From: Desulfobacterales bacterium
GTDB lineage: Bacteria; Desulfobacterota; Desulfobacteria; Desulfobacterales; UBA5852
DNA: 64,000 nucleotides
Direction of reading: 5' to 3'
Assembly: GCA_963674755.2 (NCBI GenBank)
Contig: CAXXVS010000002.1
Span: 1,472,001 to 1,536,000, forward strand
Made by a program: the position numbers and the translations under genes. The notes under the pieces are model-generated. The model did no database searches and had not been told where the DNA came from. It worked only from the letters and a program-made list of their open reading frames with translations. This document shows positions 1 to 8,594 of the stretch, one piece after another. Position 1 is the first letter of the stretch; every line of letters starts with the position of its first letter.

Positions 1-252
1 GGTGGCCCGCATCAGATTCGTGCCCAGCACGATGCTTAAGAGAGACGGCCGGATCTCCTTGGTTTTGCCGTTCTTCTCGAGATAACCCAGTTCCACCAGG
101 GTGTTGATGTAGCGATAGGTGGACGTCATGTTCAGCCCCAGGGTTTTGGCGATCGCACTCTGGGTCAACACGGGCGTCTCGCGGTTGAAGAGGGCCAGGA
201 TGCTCAGACCTTTCTCCAGGGACTTTGAAAAATAGAATTTTCCTTTTGACAT
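1..252 (-). CDS. IclR-family transcriptional regulator, N-terminal HTH part (runs off window start)
   Basis: Manual translation from ATG at 252: MSKGKFYFSKSLEKGLSILALFNRETPVLTQSAIAKTLGLNMTSTYRYINTLVELGYLEK. This is the typical IclR HTH pattern (SLEKGL.IL..F ... ST.YR...TL...GYL). Not in the ORF track because it is truncated. Confidence 0.85.
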   Translation of the reverse strand, partial: MSKGKFYFSKSLEKGLSILALFNRETPVLTQSAIAKTLGLNMTSTYRYINTLVELGYLEKNGKTKEIRPSLLSIVLGTNLMRAT

Positions 253-278
253 TCAGATTGGGGGTGATTTATTAGGGC

Positions 279-309
279 ACTATAATAGTCATCTGATTAC
301 TATTATAGT
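279..309. promoter_or_regulatory. 31-bp inverted repeat made of two palindromic ACTATWATAGT boxes; candidate operator of the divergent regulator
   Basis: ACTATAATAGT(279-289)-CATCTGATT-ACTATTATAGT(299-309) in the AT-rich gap between divergent genes; contains TATAAT. Confidence 0.7.
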
Positions 310-382
310 TAAATTGTCAGATGCCGATACGGATGTCAATTATTAATTTTCATTCAGCAGGCCATAGGGTGCCCAAAGGGGT

Positions 383-2851
383 GTGCCAATGCTTCAAGAT
401 GAAGCCATCGTTGGGGTTGCGTTCAATCATTCGGATGAAACCAATCAGGTCCCGCTCAATGCTCTGGTGGCGGCCCTCACCGGCTTTCTGGATCAGATGG
501 GCGTCCAATCCTTTGTGGGAGAAGGGGTTGCGGACATTATCCGGACGGGTGACGGGCCCACCAAACTGGAACGCCTGCTAAAGACCTGCGGCTATCCCGG
601 AAACCCGGAGGGCTTTTTCCAGGCGCTGCTGCCGCAACTCGGGACAGCGAATGGCGCGGCCCCCATCGCCGTCAACGGCATCGAACTGCCCTATTTGATG
701 ATGATGGCCCTGATGGAAGTTGTCCTGCCCGGCAACCAGTTCATCTCCGTCAAATCCACGACGCAGTTGGAAAAACTGGCCAATATCACCATCCCCGAAA
801 CAGACCGGGAGGCCATGCAGGCGGTCCTCGACACCTATCCGGTGCGGCTCTCCATGCACACCATTCGTCAGATGCGCCTCTCCCCCCACGTGGCGTACCA
901 ATATCTCCCCTTCGTCCAGGAGCTGGATACCGTCGGGCACACCAACACCTGGATCGGCCAGTTTCACCAGGGGCTGCTGGAGCAGATGTACCAAAATCGC
1001 GTCATTTTCCTTTTGAACATGAGCTGTCCGGTCTACTGCCGCTTCTGTTTCCGCAAACACAAGGATTCCCGCAACGAAACCAACCCTACCGTGGAGGATG
1101 TCAAAAAGGCCGTCGCCCATGTGGCGAATTCCCCCGCCGTCAAGGAAATCGTCATGACCGGAGGGGATCCTTTCATGAACCGGGCCAATATGGCCGCGGC
1201 TATCGACGGTTTGATGGACATCGCGCATGTGCAATCCCTGCGCCTGGCCACCCGCTCCATCGCCTACTACCCCCATATGTTCCTGTCCGAGGACGGCCGG
1301 CTGCTCACCTATCTCAAACGCAAGAACCTGGAACTCCAGGAGCGGGGCAAACGCCTGGAAGTGGCCACCCATTTCATCCATCCCGATGAAATTTCGCCCC
1401 AGAGCCTGATGATCATCGCCGACCTGGTGAAAAACGGGATCGCGGTCTATGTCCAAACGCCCCTCCTGGACAAGTGCAACGATGAGGGCCCGGAGCTGGT
1501 GCGTCTCTTCAGCCTGCTGCGCGGGGCCGGGGCCGAACTCCATTACATCTATATCCCCTGCAGCCCCATCCACGGCAACAGTGTCTACTGGTCGCCGATT
1601 GCCAAGGGGCTGGCGGTGGGCAGCTACCTGCGGGCCCACCTCTCCGACCGGGTGATCCCGCGCATCTGCACGGCCACGCCCATCGGCAAAATGGACTGGA
1701 ACACCAGCGGCTGGGCCGTGGAACCCGTGGCGGAAAACGACAACTTCATGTGGATCCGCAGTCCTTACACACCGGACTATTTCAAACAATTCGCCCCCCT
1801 GGCCAACCGGCTCGACAACATCCGGGTCAACCAGGAAGGCACCATCGACATCCAGTATATGGCCCAGATCGGCGATCGATCCCTCTTTCTGGGTGCCCGT
1901 CCCCCCAGGGGCGACCGCGGGACAGCGCCCCCGCCGGAAAGCACGGAGGCGGTGCTGCCGCTGGTGTTGAAATCAGAGGGCCTCGCGCCCTCCCTGGTGG
2001 ATACAGGGTCATCCACCCTTTCGCGCGTTCATGAAACCCGGGTCGAACTGGCGGCTGAATGCACGGAAGCCGATATAGACTATATCTGCCACGATGAGCG
2101 GATCACCGACGTGGTGGTGATCGCGGAGCAAGACGCCACCGCATCCCTTTGTGCCATCGCTAAGCTGATCAGGGCCCTGGAAGACATCCCCCATGTCAAC
2201 GCCGTCCGGCTGCGCAGCCTGGCTTTCAATTACGGACCCGAACGCTACACCCCGCTGGTCATCGACCAACTGGACCGCTGGAATCGACTGACCGTGGTCA
2301 ATCCGCTGCGCCTGGAAATCGAGACCCAGTTCCTGACGGCCGACGAATTTCGCCCGGCGCACGCGCGTTTGGCTCGCCAGCTCAACAACCGGGGCATTAC
2401 CGTCTACAACAACACCCCCCTGCTGGGCCGCGTCAACGACACGCCGGAGGCCATTCACGCTTTGGCCTATGGCTGCCGCCAGGCCGCCATCGAATTTCAC
2501 CACCTCTATGTGGCCGGCCTGCCCGTGCAAAAGGCGTGGAACGCAGCCAACCCCGTGGCGCTGTACGATGTGGTGGACATCGCCACCAAGGTCCGGCGGG
2601 AGGGCAGCGGCCGCGAAATCCCCCGCTATATCATCCGCACGCTCCTGGGCGAGGTGGACTTCGGGCTGTCTTCGGCGATCATCGGGGAGGGGAACGACCT
2701 GCAGGTCAAACTGCTGCCTTACACGCTGGCCTACTTCAAAGCGTTGTCACCTGATTTCAGCTGGCCCGCAGGGGTCCGGGAAGATGAAGACGGCCGACCC
2801 ATCGCGGCGGTCCCCGGCCTGTTGAAGACCACCGCCTTTGCTTTGTCCTGA
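383..2851 (+). CDS. KamA (lysine 2,3-aminomutase)-like radical SAM/PLP protein with a second, degenerate KamA-like domain (start may be ATG 389)
   Basis: CPVYCRFCFRK (CxxxCxxC), MTGGDP, LRLATR, THFIHPDEI, QTPLL..CND and PIGK (likely PLP Lys). The C-terminal third repeats these motifs (IPHVNAVRLRS, NNTPLLGRVND, IPRYII) without the Cys triad. Confidence 0.85.
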   Translation: MPMLQDEAIVGVAFNHSDETNQVPLNALVAALTGFLDQMGVQSFVGEGVADIIRTGDGPTKLERLLKTCGYPGNPEGFFQALLPQLGTANGAAPIAVNGIELPYLMMMALMEVVLPGNQFISVKSTTQLEKLANITIPETDREAMQAVLDTYPVRLSMHTIRQMRLSPHVAYQYLPFVQELDTVGHTNTWIGQFHQGLLEQMYQNRVIFLLNMSCPVYCRFCFRKHKDSRNETNPTVEDVKKAVAHVANSPAVKEIVMTGGDPFMNRANMAAAIDGLMDIAHVQSLRLATRSIAYYPHMFLSEDGRLLTYLKRKNLELQERGKRLEVATHFIHPDEISPQSLMIIADLVKNGIAVYVQTPLLDKCNDEGPELVRLFSLLRGAGAELHYIYIPCSPIHGNSVYWSPIAKGLAVGSYLRAHLSDRVIPRICTATPIGKMDWNTSGWAVEPVAENDNFMWIRSPYTPDYFKQFAPLANRLDNIRVNQEGTIDIQYMAQIGDRSLFLGARPPRGDRGTAPPPESTEAVLPLVLKSEGLAPSLVDTGSSTLSRVHETRVELAAECTEADIDYICHDERITDVVVIAEQDATASLCAIAKLIRALEDIPHVNAVRLRSLAFNYGPERYTPLVIDQLDRWNRLTVVNPLRLEIETQFLTADEFRPAHARLARQLNNRGITVYNNTPLLGRVNDTPEAIHALAYGCRQAAIEFHHLYVAGLPVQKAWNAANPVALYDVVDIATKVRREGSGREIPRYIIRTLLGEVDFGLSSAIIGEGNDLQVKLLPYTLAYFKALSPDFSWPAGVREDEDGRPIAAVPGLLKTTAFALS

Positions 2852-2864
2852 ACCGGAGGCCGCC

Positions 2865-3530
2865 GTGCACTACCCTTTTTTACTCTACGACCGTAAAATC
2901 CATCACCGTCCCGTCTTCACCGGACTTGAAGGCGCCCCCTACCTCGCCGACCTTTCCCTCCGGAGCGCCCTGCTGAAGGACCGGGCGCCGCGGGACCAGG
3001 GCGCCCTGCAGCAAATTTTAGAAGAAAAGATGGGCCGCGATTATCACTGGGGCCTGGCACCCTACCTCGAGCAGCGCGACACGCTGCTGCGCGACTGCCC
3101 CCAGATGGTGGCTGAAAAACGCTTCATCCATTTGGGCCTGGATGTCATCGTTCCCCTGGCAACCCCCTTGCATGCCCCACTGGATGCGGTGGTGGCCGAA
3201 AGCGGCTATGAGGAAGGCGAGGGCAACTACGGGGGCTATGTCCTGTTGAAGCACGAAGACCCCGGCTTCGAGACCTTCTACAGCTTCTATGGCCACCTGT
3301 GCCGTGATCGCCTGCCGGCCGCCGGGCAAACTTTCCGGGCCGGCACACCCTTTGCCGAAATCGGCGACTTTCACGAAAACGGCCATTGGTTCCACCATAC
3401 CCACATCCAGGTCATTACCCAAAAGGGGCTGGAGGCGGGCTACACGACCAAAGGCTATTGCAGCGCCCCGGACATGGCGGTCATGAATGACCTCTGCCCT
3501 TCCCCCATCCCCTTATTTAAAACCGGATAG
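2865..3530 (+). CDS. Peptidase M23-like domain protein, no obvious signal peptide
   Basis: HLGLD (HxxxD), YGGYVLLKH, FYSFYGHL, HTHIQ (HxH); GGAGG RBS at 2855-2859 before GTG 2865, 13 nt after the upstream stop. Confidence 0.75.
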   Translation: MHYPFLLYDRKIHHRPVFTGLEGAPYLADLSLRSALLKDRAPRDQGALQQILEEKMGRDYHWGLAPYLEQRDTLLRDCPQMVAEKRFIHLGLDVIVPLATPLHAPLDAVVAESGYEEGEGNYGGYVLLKHEDPGFETFYSFYGHLCRDRLPAAGQTFRAGTPFAEIGDFHENGHWFHHTHIQVITQKGLEAGYTTKGYCSAPDMAVMNDLCPSPIPLFKTG

Positions 3531-3954: not shown

Positions 3955-4452
3955 ATGCGGTTTAGCTTGATACCATCCCATCGGAAGACGGCGATCGCCA
4001 TCGTCGTCGGTTTCATCATGATTGCAGCGCAGGGCACCATAGCCGCCGACGCTCAAATCCCCAAGGGCCAGACGCTTTATGTCCCGGTCTACTCCCATAT
4101 CTACAGCGGCGACCGGGAACGGCCGGTCTATCTGGCCGTCACCCTCAGCATTCGCAATACCGACCCGACCCATGCCATCCAGGTGACGACCGTGGATTAC
4201 TACGACTCCGAAGGACGGCGGCTCCAGCATTATCTGAAAGCACCTGTCGCCCTGCCCCCCCTGGCAACGGTGCGCTACGTGGTCAAGGAATCGGACAAAG
4301 CGGGCGGATCGGGGGCCAATTTCCTCGTGCGCTGGCAATCCGCGGAACCGGCCAACCCGCCCCTGGTCGAAAGTATCATGATCAGCACGGCCTCTCAGCT
4401 GGGCATCTCCTTTACCTCCCGGGGCGTACCGATCGTCGAAACAGCCCCGTAA
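3955..4452 (+). CDS. DUF3124-family exported protein
   Basis: Signal-like N-terminus; GQTLYVPVYSHIY, TLSIRNTD, VDYYDSEG, GGSGANFLVRW, PLVESIMI; AGGAGA RBS before ATG 3955. Confidence 0.8.
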   Translation: MRFSLIPSHRKTAIAIVVGFIMIAAQGTIAADAQIPKGQTLYVPVYSHIYSGDRERPVYLAVTLSIRNTDPTHAIQVTTVDYYDSEGRRLQHYLKAPVALPPLATVRYVVKESDKAGGSGANFLVRWQSAEPANPPLVESIMISTASQLGISFTSRGVPIVETAP

Positions 4453-4472
4453 TCCAAAAGGAAAGCAGACCG

Positions 4473-6113
4473 GTGGACCCTGTTTGGATCTCAGCGGCCT
4501 TTCTCTTCGGGTTTGCGGTACAACAAGTAGGCCTGCCGCCACTGATCGGTTATTTGATGGCGGGCTTTACCCTGAGCGCCTTCGGCGCCGAGGGCGGCCC
4601 CATGTTGGCGAACGCGGCCGACATGGGGGTGACCCTGCTGCTCTTCTGCATCGGTCTCAAACTGCGGGTCCGGAATTTGCTCCGGCCTGAGATCTGGGCC
4701 GGTGCGGGCATCCACATGGTGCTCACCGTGTTGCTTTTCGGCACGGGAATACACGCTCTGAGTCTTGTCGCCCTCACCGGGTTTACGCCCCTGGACTTTA
4801 CCCAATCCTTTCTGATCGCCTTCGCCCTGAGCTTTTCCAGTACGGTGTTCGCGGTCAAGGTGCTGGAAGAAAAAGCGGAGATGGCCGCCTTCCACGGACG
4901 GGTCGCCATCGGAATCCTCATCATGCAGGACCTTCTGGCGGTGATCTTCCTGACCGCTTCCACAGGCAAACTGCCCTCGCCCTGGGCCCTCGTGGCCGTC
5001 CCGGGCCTGTTCCTGATCCGCCCCGTGCTGATGTTCCTGATGGACCGCAGCGGCCACGGCGAGTTGATGATCCTGTGCGGCTTTCTGATGGCCCTGGTCT
5101 GCGGGGCCGGCCTGTTCGAAGGGGTGGGCCTCAAGGCCGACCTCGGCGCCCTGTATATCGGCATCCTGTTGGCACCCCATGCCAAGGCCCCCGAACTGGC
5201 CAAGCATTTGCTGGGATTCAAGGATTTCTTCCTGATCGGCTTTTTCCTCACCATCGGCCTGGCCGGCATACCAACCCTTGCGACTTTCGGGGCGGCTCTG
5301 CTCCTGGTGGCGGTGATGCCCTTAAAGGTGGTGCTTTTCTTCCTTCTCCTGACACGGTTCAAACTGCGGGCGCGCACGGCGGTGTTAACTTCCCTGAGCC
5401 TGGCCAACTACAGCGAATTCGGCCTCATCGTCGGCGCCATCGCCGCCGGCAAGGGCTGGATCGGTAATGAATGGCTGATGATCACCGCCATCGCTCTCTC
5501 CCTGACCTTTGTCATGGCCGCGCCGCTCAACACCCGGGGAAACGACCTTTACCAACGTTTGGCCCGTTGGCTGAAACGTTTTGAGACCGAAACCCGCCAT
5601 CCCACCGACGCCCCGATCGATCCCGGCGATGCCCAAATCGCTGTTTTCGGCATGGGACGCCTCGGCACTTATGCCTACGACGCCCTTGCGGAACGCTACG
5701 GGGGGGTGGTCATCGGTATTGATTTTGACCACGCCACCGTTAAGCGTCACCAGGCCACCGGGCGCAACGTGATCTTCGGCGACCCCACGGATCCGGATTT
5801 CTGGACCCGCACGCCACCGGACCGTCAGCTGCGCCTGACCCTGTTGGCGATGCCCAAACACACCGCCAATCTCTCGGCGGCGCGTCAGGTGCGCGCCAAG
5901 GGGTTCACGCAGCGGGTCGCTGCCACAGCCCTCTTCGATGATGAAATCCCGGATCTGGAAAAAGCCGGGGTGGATGCGGCGTTTAATCTGTACAACGAGG
6001 CGGGGCTGGGGTTCGCCGCCCATGCCGGCGATCTCCTTGGAAAACGGCGGCCCAATTCCCGGCGGACGGGATCATCGTCGGTCAGCATTCCCGCCAGCCG
6101 CCAAAACGGGTGA
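4473..6113 (+). CDS. CPA2 cation:proton antiporter with C-terminal TrkA-N (KTN) domain, Kef-like
   Basis: Many TM segments with LLLFCIGLKL, SFSST, GILIMQD and SEFGLI; C-terminal GMGRLG Rossmann motif and GDPTD. Confidence 0.9.
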   Translation: MDPVWISAAFLFGFAVQQVGLPPLIGYLMAGFTLSAFGAEGGPMLANAADMGVTLLLFCIGLKLRVRNLLRPEIWAGAGIHMVLTVLLFGTGIHALSLVALTGFTPLDFTQSFLIAFALSFSSTVFAVKVLEEKAEMAAFHGRVAIGILIMQDLLAVIFLTASTGKLPSPWALVAVPGLFLIRPVLMFLMDRSGHGELMILCGFLMALVCGAGLFEGVGLKADLGALYIGILLAPHAKAPELAKHLLGFKDFFLIGFFLTIGLAGIPTLATFGAALLLVAVMPLKVVLFFLLLTRFKLRARTAVLTSLSLANYSEFGLIVGAIAAGKGWIGNEWLMITAIALSLTFVMAAPLNTRGNDLYQRLARWLKRFETETRHPTDAPIDPGDAQIAVFGMGRLGTYAYDALAERYGGVVIGIDFDHATVKRHQATGRNVIFGDPTDPDFWTRTPPDRQLRLTLLAMPKHTANLSAARQVRAKGFTQRVAATALFDDEIPDLEKAGVDAAFNLYNEAGLGFAAHAGDLLGKRRPNSRRTGSSSVSIPASRQNG

Positions 6114-6164
6114 TACCAGCTTCCCGGCGGCCCCTTGCCCCTGCCCGATGAAGGACTTCTTGCC

Positions 6165-7199
6165 ATGGTCCAAAAAGTCATTCTCGATATGGACAATGCC
6201 TTGACCATTCCGGCGCAGGACACCGATGACGCCCTGGCCCTGGCCCTGGCCCTGACATCGCCGGAGCTGGCGGTGCTGGGATGCACCACCTGTGCCGGCA
6301 ATTGCCGGACGCACCAGTCGACACAGAACACCCTGTGTCTTCTGGAAGCGGGCGGCATCCGCACCCTGCCAGTGGCCGAGGGGCACCCCGCCGCCCTGGC
6401 GCGGGACCGGGAGGCCCATTTCCGTTACCTGGCCGCCAAGAGTGAAGGACCCCAAGCCCGCTATTGGAAAGGCTTGCCGCAACCGCCGCTCCCCACTCTG
6501 ACAGCGGCCCCGCAGCCGGCGTGGGAGTTTATCCTGGAAACGGCCCGCCGCCATCCCGGCGAAGTGCTTTTTATCGCCCTGGGATCGTTGACCAACCTGG
6601 CCCTGGCCCTGCTGGAGGATCCGACCGGCGCGGCGCTGCTCAAAGGGGTGATTCACATGGGCGGGGCCTTCCAGCCTGTGGGAGGAGCGCCCTTTGTCTG
6701 GCAGACTGCGGATATTCCCGCCGACATCTGGCGCACCACCCTGCGCTTCAACACCCTTTTCGATCCTGAGGCCGCCGCCGTGGTCTTCCGTTCCGGCCTT
6801 CCCGTGACCCTGGTGCCCGCCAATGTCACCTCCCGGGTGTTCCAGCGGATAGAGCATCTTGACCTACTCCAAGCGGCCGGAACCCCCTGGCATCGCTTCC
6901 TTGAAGCCTATGCCCGCCCCTGGGTGCAATGGTCCCTCAAAGAACGCCGGCTGCCGGGCGCCCATATGCACGACCCCTTGACCGTGGCCACGGTCATCGA
7001 CCCCGCCGTCTGCCGTTTCGAATCGATAAACCTGAGCGTGACGGCCCTGTTGAGGGGTAGAGACGACTGGCTGTCATGGGAGGGCGGCGGTCTGCCGGTC
7101 CGCATCGCCACGGAAGTGGATGCGCCGCGCTTTGAAAACTGGCTGGCCGAGCGCCTGGGCGCGCCTTTGGGGAAAGATTATCTTATCCCCCGGCCATGA
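6165..7199 (+). CDS. Nucleoside hydrolase (IU-NH family)
   Basis: VILDMD...DTDDALAL, GSLTNLALAL, HMGG, FN...DPEAA, HDPL motifs; start set at ATG 6165 after AAGGA. Confidence 0.85.
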   Translation: MVQKVILDMDNALTIPAQDTDDALALALALTSPELAVLGCTTCAGNCRTHQSTQNTLCLLEAGGIRTLPVAEGHPAALARDREAHFRYLAAKSEGPQARYWKGLPQPPLPTLTAAPQPAWEFILETARRHPGEVLFIALGSLTNLALALLEDPTGAALLKGVIHMGGAFQPVGGAPFVWQTADIPADIWRTTLRFNTLFDPEAAAVVFRSGLPVTLVPANVTSRVFQRIEHLDLLQAAGTPWHRFLEAYARPWVQWSLKERRLPGAHMHDPLTVATVIDPAVCRFESINLSVTALLRGRDDWLSWEGGGLPVRIATEVDAPRFENWLAERLGAPLGKDYLIPRP

Positions 7200-7262
7200 A
7201 GCATAAAACCGGCCGTCTTCGGCCCGGATCGTCAGCCACACGAATCGCATTGATCGATAACG

Positions 7263-8594
7263 CTAGGCGGAAAAAGCATTGCCGACCTGGTTATAGACCG
7301 CCATAACGGCGGCGATCCGCCCCAGAACGACATCTTCAGGGTCCCATGGATGGGAAGTGCCGTCAGGATGGCCGGCGGCTTCGGGCAGGTGCTTACCCAA
7401 AAGGGCGGCAGGCGGCGGATACTGCCGCAGGTTGGCCAGCAGGCGCTGCAAGGCGGCTTTGGCCTCGGGCCAGGCCCAGTAGTAGCGGATCCGATCGGAA
7501 AAGGCCTGCCGGCGCAGCCGCTTCAGCTCGGCCGCCGATCCCCGGTAGTAGGCCTGCCAATAGCGGGAATCGGCCAGCATCAGGCGCTCCATGGTTTCCG
7601 GCAAATGGGAAAGCGTCACGCCCTTGTGATCGGCCAGAAGTTCTTCTTCGATCGCCGCGAGCCCGAAAAGCGCCTCCCGCATGGCATAAGTCAGGGCCGG
7701 GCCCACCTTGAGGATGCCGCACTGGTCGGCCACCATGCGGGACAGGGCCGCCGGGGTCTGGAAATCGGTCGAATGGGCCTCGAAGACGAGCCGGTCTTCC
7801 TGCCGGATATAGGCCACCAAGGGCTGCATGCGCTCTGCATCATAGGGATGGATCACCTGCGGTGCGAAATCAGCGCCGGTGTTCACCACCAGGGCCACAA
7901 CCCGCTGCCAGGCCTTTTCCAAGCCCGCCGCTTCAAAGGCCTGGCGGCAGGCGGCGACGGTGTCCCGGACATGGACCGCCCCGCTCACCGGCGCCAACGC
8001 GGTCTGCCCGTCCTGCCCTCCCGGAAGGGGCACGTCGGATCCGATCACGTACCAGGGCGGCGCCACCCGCTGATCATGGGCGGTTTCCTCCGCCACACGG
8101 CACAACGCCGCGCTGCGGCGGCAAATCAGCGCCAGGGGAAGGCTGCCGTCCGGCTCCCGGGGATCGCCGACGCAGGGGGAGGAGGTGTCCAGGTGAATTT
8201 TCTGGTAGCCGGCGGCCACGCAGGCCGCGGCCAGTTCCATGGCCCTGGACAGGGCGTCCCCGGCGTTCTCGCCACGCCAGGGATAGGGCCCCAAATGGTC
8301 CGCCCCCAACAGCAGCCGGTGGCCGGGCAGGCCGGCGGCCTCCGCCAGCTGACGCACCCGGCGGCCGAACGCGGCCGGGGTCCATCCCGCATACCCACCG
8401 GAGAGATTGACCTGGCTGGCGGTGGACTCGATCAGGGCCGGCGCTCCGTCCCGCCGGGCCTGCTGCAGCACCGCCCGGACCGCATAGGGGCTGGCCGTGC
8501 AGGCAGCCGTCAGGGCGCACGGCCGTCCCTGCTTATGACGGCGAACCACTTCCCGAAGGACGGTCGCGGCCGGCATGTCCCGCCATCTGGGCAT
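7263..8594 (-). CDS. GatZ/KbaZ family protein (tagatose-6-phosphate 4-epimerase / tagatose-bisphosphate aldolase non-catalytic subunit)
   Basis: LIESTASQVN..GGY, GADHLGP, KIHLDTS, FEAHSTDFQ, LKVGPALT, SDRIRYYW. Confidence 0.9.
   Translation of the reverse strand: MPRWRDMPAATVLREVVRRHKQGRPCALTAACTASPYAVRAVLQQARRDGAPALIESTASQVNLSGGYAGWTPAAFGRRVRQLAEAAGLPGHRLLLGADHLGPYPWRGENAGDALSRAMELAAACVAAGYQKIHLDTSSPCVGDPREPDGSLPLALICRRSAALCRVAEETAHDQRVAPPWYVIGSDVPLPGGQDGQTALAPVSGAVHVRDTVAACRQAFEAAGLEKAWQRVVALVVNTGADFAPQVIHPYDAERMQPLVAYIRQEDRLVFEAHSTDFQTPAALSRMVADQCGILKVGPALTYAMREALFGLAAIEEELLADHKGVTLSHLPETMERLMLADSRYWQAYYRGSAAELKRLRRQAFSDRIRYYWAWPEAKAALQRLLANLRQYPPPAALLGKHLPEAAGHPDGTSHPWDPEDVVLGRIAAVMAVYNQVGNAFSA

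Follow-up and report, generated by a model that had tools for sequence, protein, structure and literature searches.

What does the gene group at the left end of this stretch do, in which a divergent IclR-family regulator faces an 820-residue KamA-like enzyme followed by an M23-like protein? The window, that is, the whole 64,000-nucleotide stretch that was analysed, comes from a genome of the Desulfobacterales (G000 below), and a preliminary description had placed the IclR gene, an operator, the large KamA-like open reading frame (ORF) and the M23-like ORF where we find them too. It had read the latter two as a two-gene module; the genes are instead one end of a nutrient-uptake cluster of about nine, found in sulfate-reducing bacteria, that crosses the left window edge, and the system is conserved, uncharacterised and larger than had been seen. 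Its enzyme, built like lysine 2,3-aminomutase (LAM), alternates with AblA as the companion of the acetyltransferase gene ablB. We tentatively propose from sequence, with somewhat less than even confidence, that it interconverts N-epsilon-acetyl-beta-lysine and N-epsilon-acetyl-L-lysine in the salvage of an osmolyte.

One intact and one degenerate module in the tandem enzyme

The enzyme is encoded on the plus strand at 389..2851, giving 820 residues from the ATG at 389, from which residues are numbered here, or 822 from a GTG at 383. It consists of an N-terminal helical domain (389..745, about residues 1-119), a first module (746..1900) and a second one (1961..2848). The name 'double KamA' that it had been given holds insofar as its two halves align with each other (27% identity over 233 residues, E 4e-22), but only module 1 is an intact aminomutase module with cysteines, GGD motif and pyridoxal phosphate (PLP) lysine, and module 2 is degenerate. 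Radical_SAM (PF04055) scores above the Pfam cut-off, and the CxxxCxxC triad and fold of the radical S-adenosylmethionine (SAM) enzymes are confined to module 1. This module holds C213, C217 and C220 (1025-1048), R222, the GGD motif and K434 (1688-1690), none of which varies among the 75 full-length close homologues. K434 and R222 align with the K337 and R134 positions of LAM (2A5H and AblA), and by analogy with that enzyme we take them to be the PLP-binding lysine and the carboxylate-binding arginine. Module 2 has lost the cysteine loop and carries Glu755 at the PLP-lysine position; its invariant residues include R546, H548, D574 and R607, with 20 invariant columns in a single 100-residue stretch. 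The N-terminal domain is the least conserved part and yielded a weak lead only, to DUF8427 (score 0.82-0.83).

The AlphaFold model of the enzyme (predicted local distance difference test, pLDDT, 92; predicted template modelling score, pTM, 0.93) has LAM as its best fold match (2A5H; Z 25.4, root-mean-square deviation 2.6 over 345 residues, the match spanning model residues 104-811), and the same entry is the sole solved structure matched by sequence (E 1.6e-19). Because LAM is a dimer of dimers, according to the available part of PMC9081730, module 2 probably stands in, by analogy, for the partner subunit of the LAM dimer.

Six KamA-type NCBIfam models match the enzyme, all under their cut-offs. 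They include TIGR00238 (KamA-like, 152.9 vs 199.2 bits), TIGR03820 (AblA/KamA, 151.3 vs 525.4), TIGR03821 (EpmB, 129.8 vs 369.3; efp and epmA are not among the recurrent neighbours) and the glutamate and arginine 2,3-aminomutase models TIGR04368 and TIGR04468 (135 vs 650 and 147 vs 600). The pocket, read from alignments and not from model coordinates, departs from LAM as well. We take Asp293 and Asp330 of LAM to be the residues that hold the side-chain amine of lysine; the enzyme has Ser392 and Ala429 at these positions, and an aspartate occurs at either one in 0 of 39 diverse tandem proteins, all 39 of which have the PLP lysine. Both aspartates are present in single-module AblA and in the ordinary KamA of G000. 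The doubt raised earlier that this is an ordinary lysine enzyme is borne out insofar as every named KamA-family cut-off is missed, and free lysine is probably not the substrate. Tandem proteins are often labelled 'lysine 2,3-aminomutase' in databases, a label that is probably wrong for the family.

Whatever its substrate, the family is a common one. At the 50% level the full-length tandem proteins form about a dozen clusters, down to 37% identity; 1015 proteins among 8000 candidates match at E <= 1e-30, a number that may include single-module KamAs. In a phylum sample the tandem enzyme was found in 3 of 401 genomes, all from the same order as G000, which understates its range because matches also occur in a second order and in an Acidobacteria metagenome-assembled genome. 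Plasmids gave no tandem form (19 records matched, none covering 80%), and cultured Desulfosarcina and Desulfopila strains carry the cluster. Two metatranscriptomes matched at a share of 0.05-0.06, in contigs only and as short pieces, which cannot show transcription or co-transcription.

Co-occurrence with ablB and alternation with AblA

The preliminary description had noted that ablB, efp/epmA and kamDE are not neighbours of the enzyme gene, which holds for G000, whose single ablB is about 760 kb distant; it had overlooked the linkage of ablB with the enzyme in relatives, among them the three congeners that have the enzyme, each of which keeps ablB in the cluster. To quantify this link we used 201 genomes drawn across the order of G000, a less biased set than the survey of loci given below (racemase subfamily members were counted as full-length matches at at least 52% identity). 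The tandem enzyme was found in 44 of these genomes, the racemase subfamily in 34, ablB in 32, the M23 subfamily in 29 and AblA over its cut-off in 7, and the enzyme accompanied ablB in 28/32, M23 in 26/29, the racemase in 26/34 and AblA in 2/7. Among the 157 genomes without the enzyme, ablB occurred in only 4: in three it ends the same kinds of importer genes (two of these cases lie at a contig end or close to one) and in the fourth it belongs to a canonical ablAB. The 28 genomes with both ablB and the enzyme span 17 families and several gene orders, and AblA was over its cut-off in none of them. An ordinary single KamA, used as a control, was not associated with the tandem enzyme (25/44 vs 79/157). 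In a second order (141 genomes), ablB was found in 22 genomes and AblA in 21 of these, the exception being the seed genome, which has the tandem enzyme. These counts in two orders indicate that ablB is seldom without a 2,3-aminomutase as companion, AblA and the tandem enzyme alternating in that role.

In 20 of the 28 genomes ablB falls inside the region fetched with the enzyme gene, and in 10 it immediately precedes that gene on the same strand; 13 of 13 cluster AblBs tested score above the TIGR03827 cut-off. This pattern could mean that the enzyme plainly replaces AblA, being an otherwise ordinary lysine 2,3-aminomutase whose pocket has been reshaped and which, paired with AblB, turns free lysine into the osmolyte, the other genes serving import or recycling. 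Such a role would suit the distribution complementary to AblA, the ten ablB-enzyme pairs resembling ablAB, the two ablB genomes (G431 and G563) in which the tandem enzyme is the sole KamA-family match, and the four loci adjoined by ablAB or proVWX-type osmolyte genes. We nonetheless consider it unlikely, as it has to contend with the loss of both side-chain aspartates in 39/39 proteins, a TIGR03820 score of 151 bits against a cut-off of 525, the lack of ablB in 16 of the 44 enzyme genomes, and the presence of a canonical ablAB besides the tandem enzyme in L019, L046 and G686.

Further genes of these two families were observed in passing. The ablB of G000 (G000:C2:2232109-2233029, L086) stands alone upstream of a polar-amino-acid ATP-binding cassette (ABC) system, like the ablB-ABC units of G198, G542 and G686. 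G000 also has an orphan single-module KamA of 357 residues (G000:C3:1767675-1768748, L083), whose loop before the PLP lysine is as short as in the tandem enzyme and whose Asp293 site holds Glu; it lies downstream of an oligopeptide-type ABC system and a 503-residue hydrolase putatively of the MlrC/M81 type (assigned by eye). Its ordinary KamA with both aspartates (G000:C3:2348587-2350026, L082) is upstream of ATP-grasp-like genes (by eye), and a similar KamA, just under the AblA cut-off, occurs in about half of the order sample. Another KamA type, with Gln at the Asp293 site, lies beside the tandem enzyme at L105:4033-5298 and L128:9019-10278; its best match is glutamate 2,3-aminomutase, under the cut-off (537 vs 650), and in L128 it has its own Pot-type ABC system, class III aminotransferase and amidohydrolase.

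The cluster, its regulator and a possible salvage route

The window holds the 5' part of the IclR gene (1..252, minus strand; 262 residues in full, running past the left edge), whose product scores above the Pfam cut-offs of both HTH_IclR and IclR_C. Beyond the edge, where the preliminary description had advised looking, the gene heads a leftward importer operon (G000:C2:1462795-1472252) and no kam or abl genes lie just outside. The operon encodes a PotB/C/D/A-like ABC importer, a proline-racemase-family enzyme that keeps both catalytic cysteines, an Amidohydro_3 hydrolase and a class I aminotransferase. We surveyed the best 80 of 224 GTDB loci with 10-kb flanks, a set biased to close relatives in which contig ends cut many loci short, and found IclR in 66, M23 in 63, a PotD-like gene in 58, the racemase in 48, the amidohydrolase in 43, ablB in 19 (two of these in canonical ablAB) and the aminotransferase in 18; in 7 loci a polar-amino-acid ABC system takes the place of the Pot system and the racemase is missing. 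The genes kamDE (lysine 5,6-aminomutase) are not among the recurrent neighbours. Searches of G000 for PF09043 (lysine 5,6-aminomutase) and for D-proline reductase gave no match, but neither did their positive controls.

IclR is present in 66 of the 76 close loci with room for it, and the trio of IclR, KamA and M23 foreseen in the preliminary description is kept in 54 of 66 with room on both sides. Co-conservation does not extend to the whole order sample: M23 is absent from 18 of the 44 enzyme genomes, IclR is adjacent in 16/44 and the complete trio is present in 14/44, and other gene arrangements show sigma-54 regulators instead.

The strong operator noted earlier is real. Two near-perfect palindromes of the form ACTATWATAGT, ACTATAATAGT (279-289) and ACTATTATAGT (299-309), lie 20 bp apart in the double operator ACTATAATAGT-N9-ACTATTATAGT (279..309), which is predicted to be the IclR site. 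Of 67 IclR-KamA spacers (that of G000 included), 64 could be extracted and every one of these contains the pair, counting the best match per spacer without a shuffle control, and 12 of the 22 box positions are invariant across them. Of the 18 box matches in the 6.7-Mb genome, no others form a double site. As to a wider IclR regulon, the operator scan gave only single boxes elsewhere in G000, and exact single boxes in five relatives were no commoner than the reversed control. A TGTCAA at 334-339 (TTGACA on the minus strand), kept in 60/64 spacers, is a possible -35 box or site of a second factor; no sigma70 promoter was called there on the minus strand.

The M23-like gene (2865..3530, plus strand, GTG start, 221 residues) follows the enzyme stop by 13 nucleotides and has a ribosome-binding site of its own, GGAGG, in the gap, both as described before. 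Its product matches PF01551 at 35 bits, above the cut-off, and has the HxxxD and HxH motifs and the fold of the peptidase M23/LytM group: the zinc site is complete (H89, D93, H180), these residues and H144 and H178 are invariant in 77 of 77 sequences, and the model (pLDDT 92) has a LytM fold (Z 14.2 to 4BH5 and 13.6 to 2B0P). The protein is predicted to be cytoplasmic; the signal peptide whose lack had been pointed out was likewise not seen by us (by inspection only), and inspection, Pfam and the model gave no export or wall-targeting part. The best NCBIfam match is the middle of PRK06148 (model positions 384-570, E 2e-31), and at 108.8 bits vs 1128 for the full model the protein is a stand-alone form. 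Single-sequence search found no longer forms; profile search yielded seven relatives at E <= 1e-20, all seven of them kinase-M23-aminotransferase fusions. We take their outer domains to be homologues of hydroxylysine kinase and phospho-lyase. Plasmid matches, among the 25 of 75 listed, lie inside class III aminotransferase fusions of rhizobia. Because the longer relatives are such fusions, the comparison suggests that the protein hydrolyses a small amide in the cytoplasm and does not act on the wall. In the order sample the M23 gene lies directly after the enzyme in 15 of 26 genomes, is its divergent neighbour in 7 and is elsewhere in 4, beside ablB in three of these. A complex prediction of enzyme residues 42-820 with the M23 protein scored 0.00, which is no evidence either way.

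These data also bear on the idea, put forward in the preliminary description, that enzyme and M23 protein form a self-contained module possibly acting on a peptidoglycan-derived fragment; the M23 protein would then cleave a cytoplasmic cross-link peptide. The LytM fold (Z about 14) with its intact zinc site, the tight coupling of M23 to the enzyme in 62 of 70 close loci, the racemase in the cluster and a distant locus (L153) with the M23 gene beside a D-Ala-D-Ala carboxypeptidase would agree with it. We nevertheless hold it to be very improbable, given that the importers are of the Pot or polar-amino-acid type and not the oligopeptide type, that no cell-wall recycling gene is among the annotated recurrent neighbours, that M23 is missing in 18/44 genomes and sometimes moved to ablB, and that its longer relatives are small-molecule kinase-aminotransferase fusions.

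An acetyl-lysine aminomutase fits best, because of the neutral pocket, the seemingly obligatory tie to the side-chain acetyltransferase AblB, the two amide hydrolases and the importer under IclR; importer, hydrolases and IclR control also point to salvage. That the pocket decides the substrate agrees with LAM itself, which accepts alanine once the presumably equivalent Asp is replaced (available part of PMC9850924). The ABC system would import N-epsilon-acetyl-beta-lysine, and IclR would release both promoters. With the degenerate module replacing the LAM partner subunit, each chain would have one active site, where the reversible radical chemistry of LAM would move the amino group of the acetylated substrate between C3 and C2, giving N-epsilon-acetyl-L-lysine. 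The M23 protein and/or the amidohydrolase would then cut the side-chain amide to lysine and acetate, the aminotransferase would pass the carbon skeleton onward, and AblB, where kept, would acetylate free (beta-)lysine to fit the enzyme. As the reaction would be reversible, enzyme and AblB could also make the osmolyte, in reverse order to AblAB. In the degradation of acetylated beta-lysine by Pseudomonas B4 and of N6-acetyl-lysine by yeast, both aerobic routes, the side-chain amine is acetylated, followed by transamination and deacetylation, and we know of no aminomutase acting on an acetylated form. The osmolyte is excreted on hyposaline stress (available part of PMC11337218), and among the titles and abstracts that our searches gave, none described its breakdown by anaerobes.

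A number of points weigh against acetyl-lysine salvage. All its chemical steps are inferred from sequence, and it presupposes the roles given above for Asp293 and Asp330. Besides the 16/44 enzyme genomes without ablB, the G000 locus itself has lost ablB, and in a quick tree of AblB (77 of 83 rows after removal of identical ones) the lone ablB of G000 groups on the AblA-type side; cluster-type AblBs group apart from the AblA-paired ones, so their substrate may differ. The 18 enzyme genomes without M23 include G198 and G456 (99% complete), and seven of the 44, several of them fragmented, lack ablB, M23 and the racemase alike. The scheme leaves no role for the proline-racemase-family gene (26/44 enzyme genomes, 34 genomes altogether), the importer-racemase-amidohydrolase block is also found apart from the enzyme or in genomes without it, and the most distant clade (42-48% identity, L142-L155) mostly has no partner genes nearby. 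Finally, the genomes are related, so the counts overstate independence.

Alternatively, the enzyme may act on a different substrate: acetylated ornithine or diaminobutyrate, a neutral amino acid of small size, or a D- or cyclic form first handled by racemase and amidohydrolase. The AblB-like protein would then be a paralog acetylating the same compound. The racemase subfamily has a motif of its own, a conserved Arg-Arg-Tyr-Pro before the catalytic Cys (L001:9844-10881), which is shared by 63 sequences, is under all named cut-offs and is not covered in the available part of PMC4113996. The cluster-type AblBs stand apart from AblA-paired ones even inside one family, the binding protein carries W-S-G-R in place of the W-N-G-S of polyamine binders, and two unrelated importer types serve the cluster. 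The pocket could be read in the same way: the Asp changed in an engineered LAM presumably matches the Asp330 site, where the enzyme has Ala, as if resembling the engineered alanine aminomutases. That change of the corresponding Asp gave alanine aminomutase activity, according to the available part of PMC9850924. Set against these are the 13/13 AblBs above the TIGR03827 cut-off, the alternation of AblA and the tandem enzyme beside ablB, and a lysine-dehydrogenase-like gene at the operon end in two loci, and we regard a different substrate as doubtful, if worth serious attention.

Individual loci show further variation. The gene at the operon end just mentioned, saccharopine/lysine-dehydrogenase-like, is found at L043:1156-2274 and in L045 (best solved match 3ABI, E 1e-18). 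In L019, L046, L020 and L057 the genes immediately downstream of M23 are a MarR gene and either ablAB or a betaine transport system of the proVWX type, which makes this an osmolyte neighbourhood. A second amidohydrolase takes the place of M23 in one case (L058), and L031 of the cultured Desulfosarcina alkanivorans has the full cluster including ablB, though its locus shows no sign of the M23 gene (compare D. widdelii, L007). L268, from a genome without the tandem enzyme (G561), combines an IclR paralog, a class III aminotransferase, a coenzyme A-transferase subunit, an ArgE/DapE deacylase, a Pot ABC system, the racemase and the amidohydrolase. Window positions 3958-8594 hold genes for a DUF3124 protein, a cation/proton antiporter with TrkA-N, a nucleoside hydrolase and a GatZ/KbaZ protein, which do not recur beside homologues and are unrelated to the cluster. 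At G000:C3:1769471-1774667, an HD-domain and dynamin-like gene pair occurs twice in tandem, the first dynamin-like copy shortened, through duplication or as an assembly artefact.

Comparison with known systems

Producers of N-epsilon-acetyl-beta-lysine include methanogens, methane-oxidising archaea and many bacteria. In cultured strains of Desulfosarcina and Desulfopila, the cluster provides a full set of genes that can be put to the test. The enzyme would offer a new beta-amino-acid biocatalyst and a natural half-of-sites LAM dimer, and the M23 protein a handle on the uncharacterised M23 domain of the kinase-aminotransferase fusions. In the literature searched, in which subscription journals were thinly covered, neither the tandem family nor the cluster came up in any title or abstract; measured here are the alternation of AblA and the tandem enzyme across two orders, the movement of M23 with ablB, the fusion relatives of M23 and the operator.

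The M23 protein shares its fold and its HxxxD and HxH motifs with the M23 endopeptidases LytM, the EnvC domain and lysostaphin; unlike them it has about 90 extra residues, shows no export signal or wall-binding domain and is encoded among genes of amino-acid metabolism. It is 32-42% identical to the PRK06148-type fusions of an APH kinase, M23 and a class III aminotransferase, but stands alone here, with no kinase or class III aminotransferase among its recurrent neighbours.

Like LAM of Clostridium subterminale (2A5H), module 1 keeps CxxxCxxC and the equivalents of Arg134 and the PLP lysine; unlike LAM, the 820-residue tandem enzyme has an additional domain at its N-terminus and a second module without cofactors, Ser and Ala at Asp293 and Asp330, a shorter loop before the PLP lysine and no kamDE neighbour. 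Described so far, in the available parts of the sources, are LAM genes next to ablB or efp (PMC2821294, PMC11337218), the KamA of B. subtilis (PMC6522883) and the AblAB pathway to N-epsilon-acetyl-beta-lysine (PMC11337218). As in AblAB (TIGR03820 with TIGR03827), a 2,3-aminomutase-type enzyme is accompanied here by an acetyltransferase of the AblB family, and in 10 genomes the two genes stand side by side in one run; in contrast to AblAB, ablB comes first and is dispensable in 16/44, the enzyme is far under the AblA cut-off, and an importer, hydrolases, a racemase, an aminotransferase and a catabolic-type regulator are added. To summarize, the tandem enzyme is predicted to work like LAM and travels like AblA, yet it falls outside the AblA, EpmB and glutamate and arginine aminomutase families and is not to be filed there.

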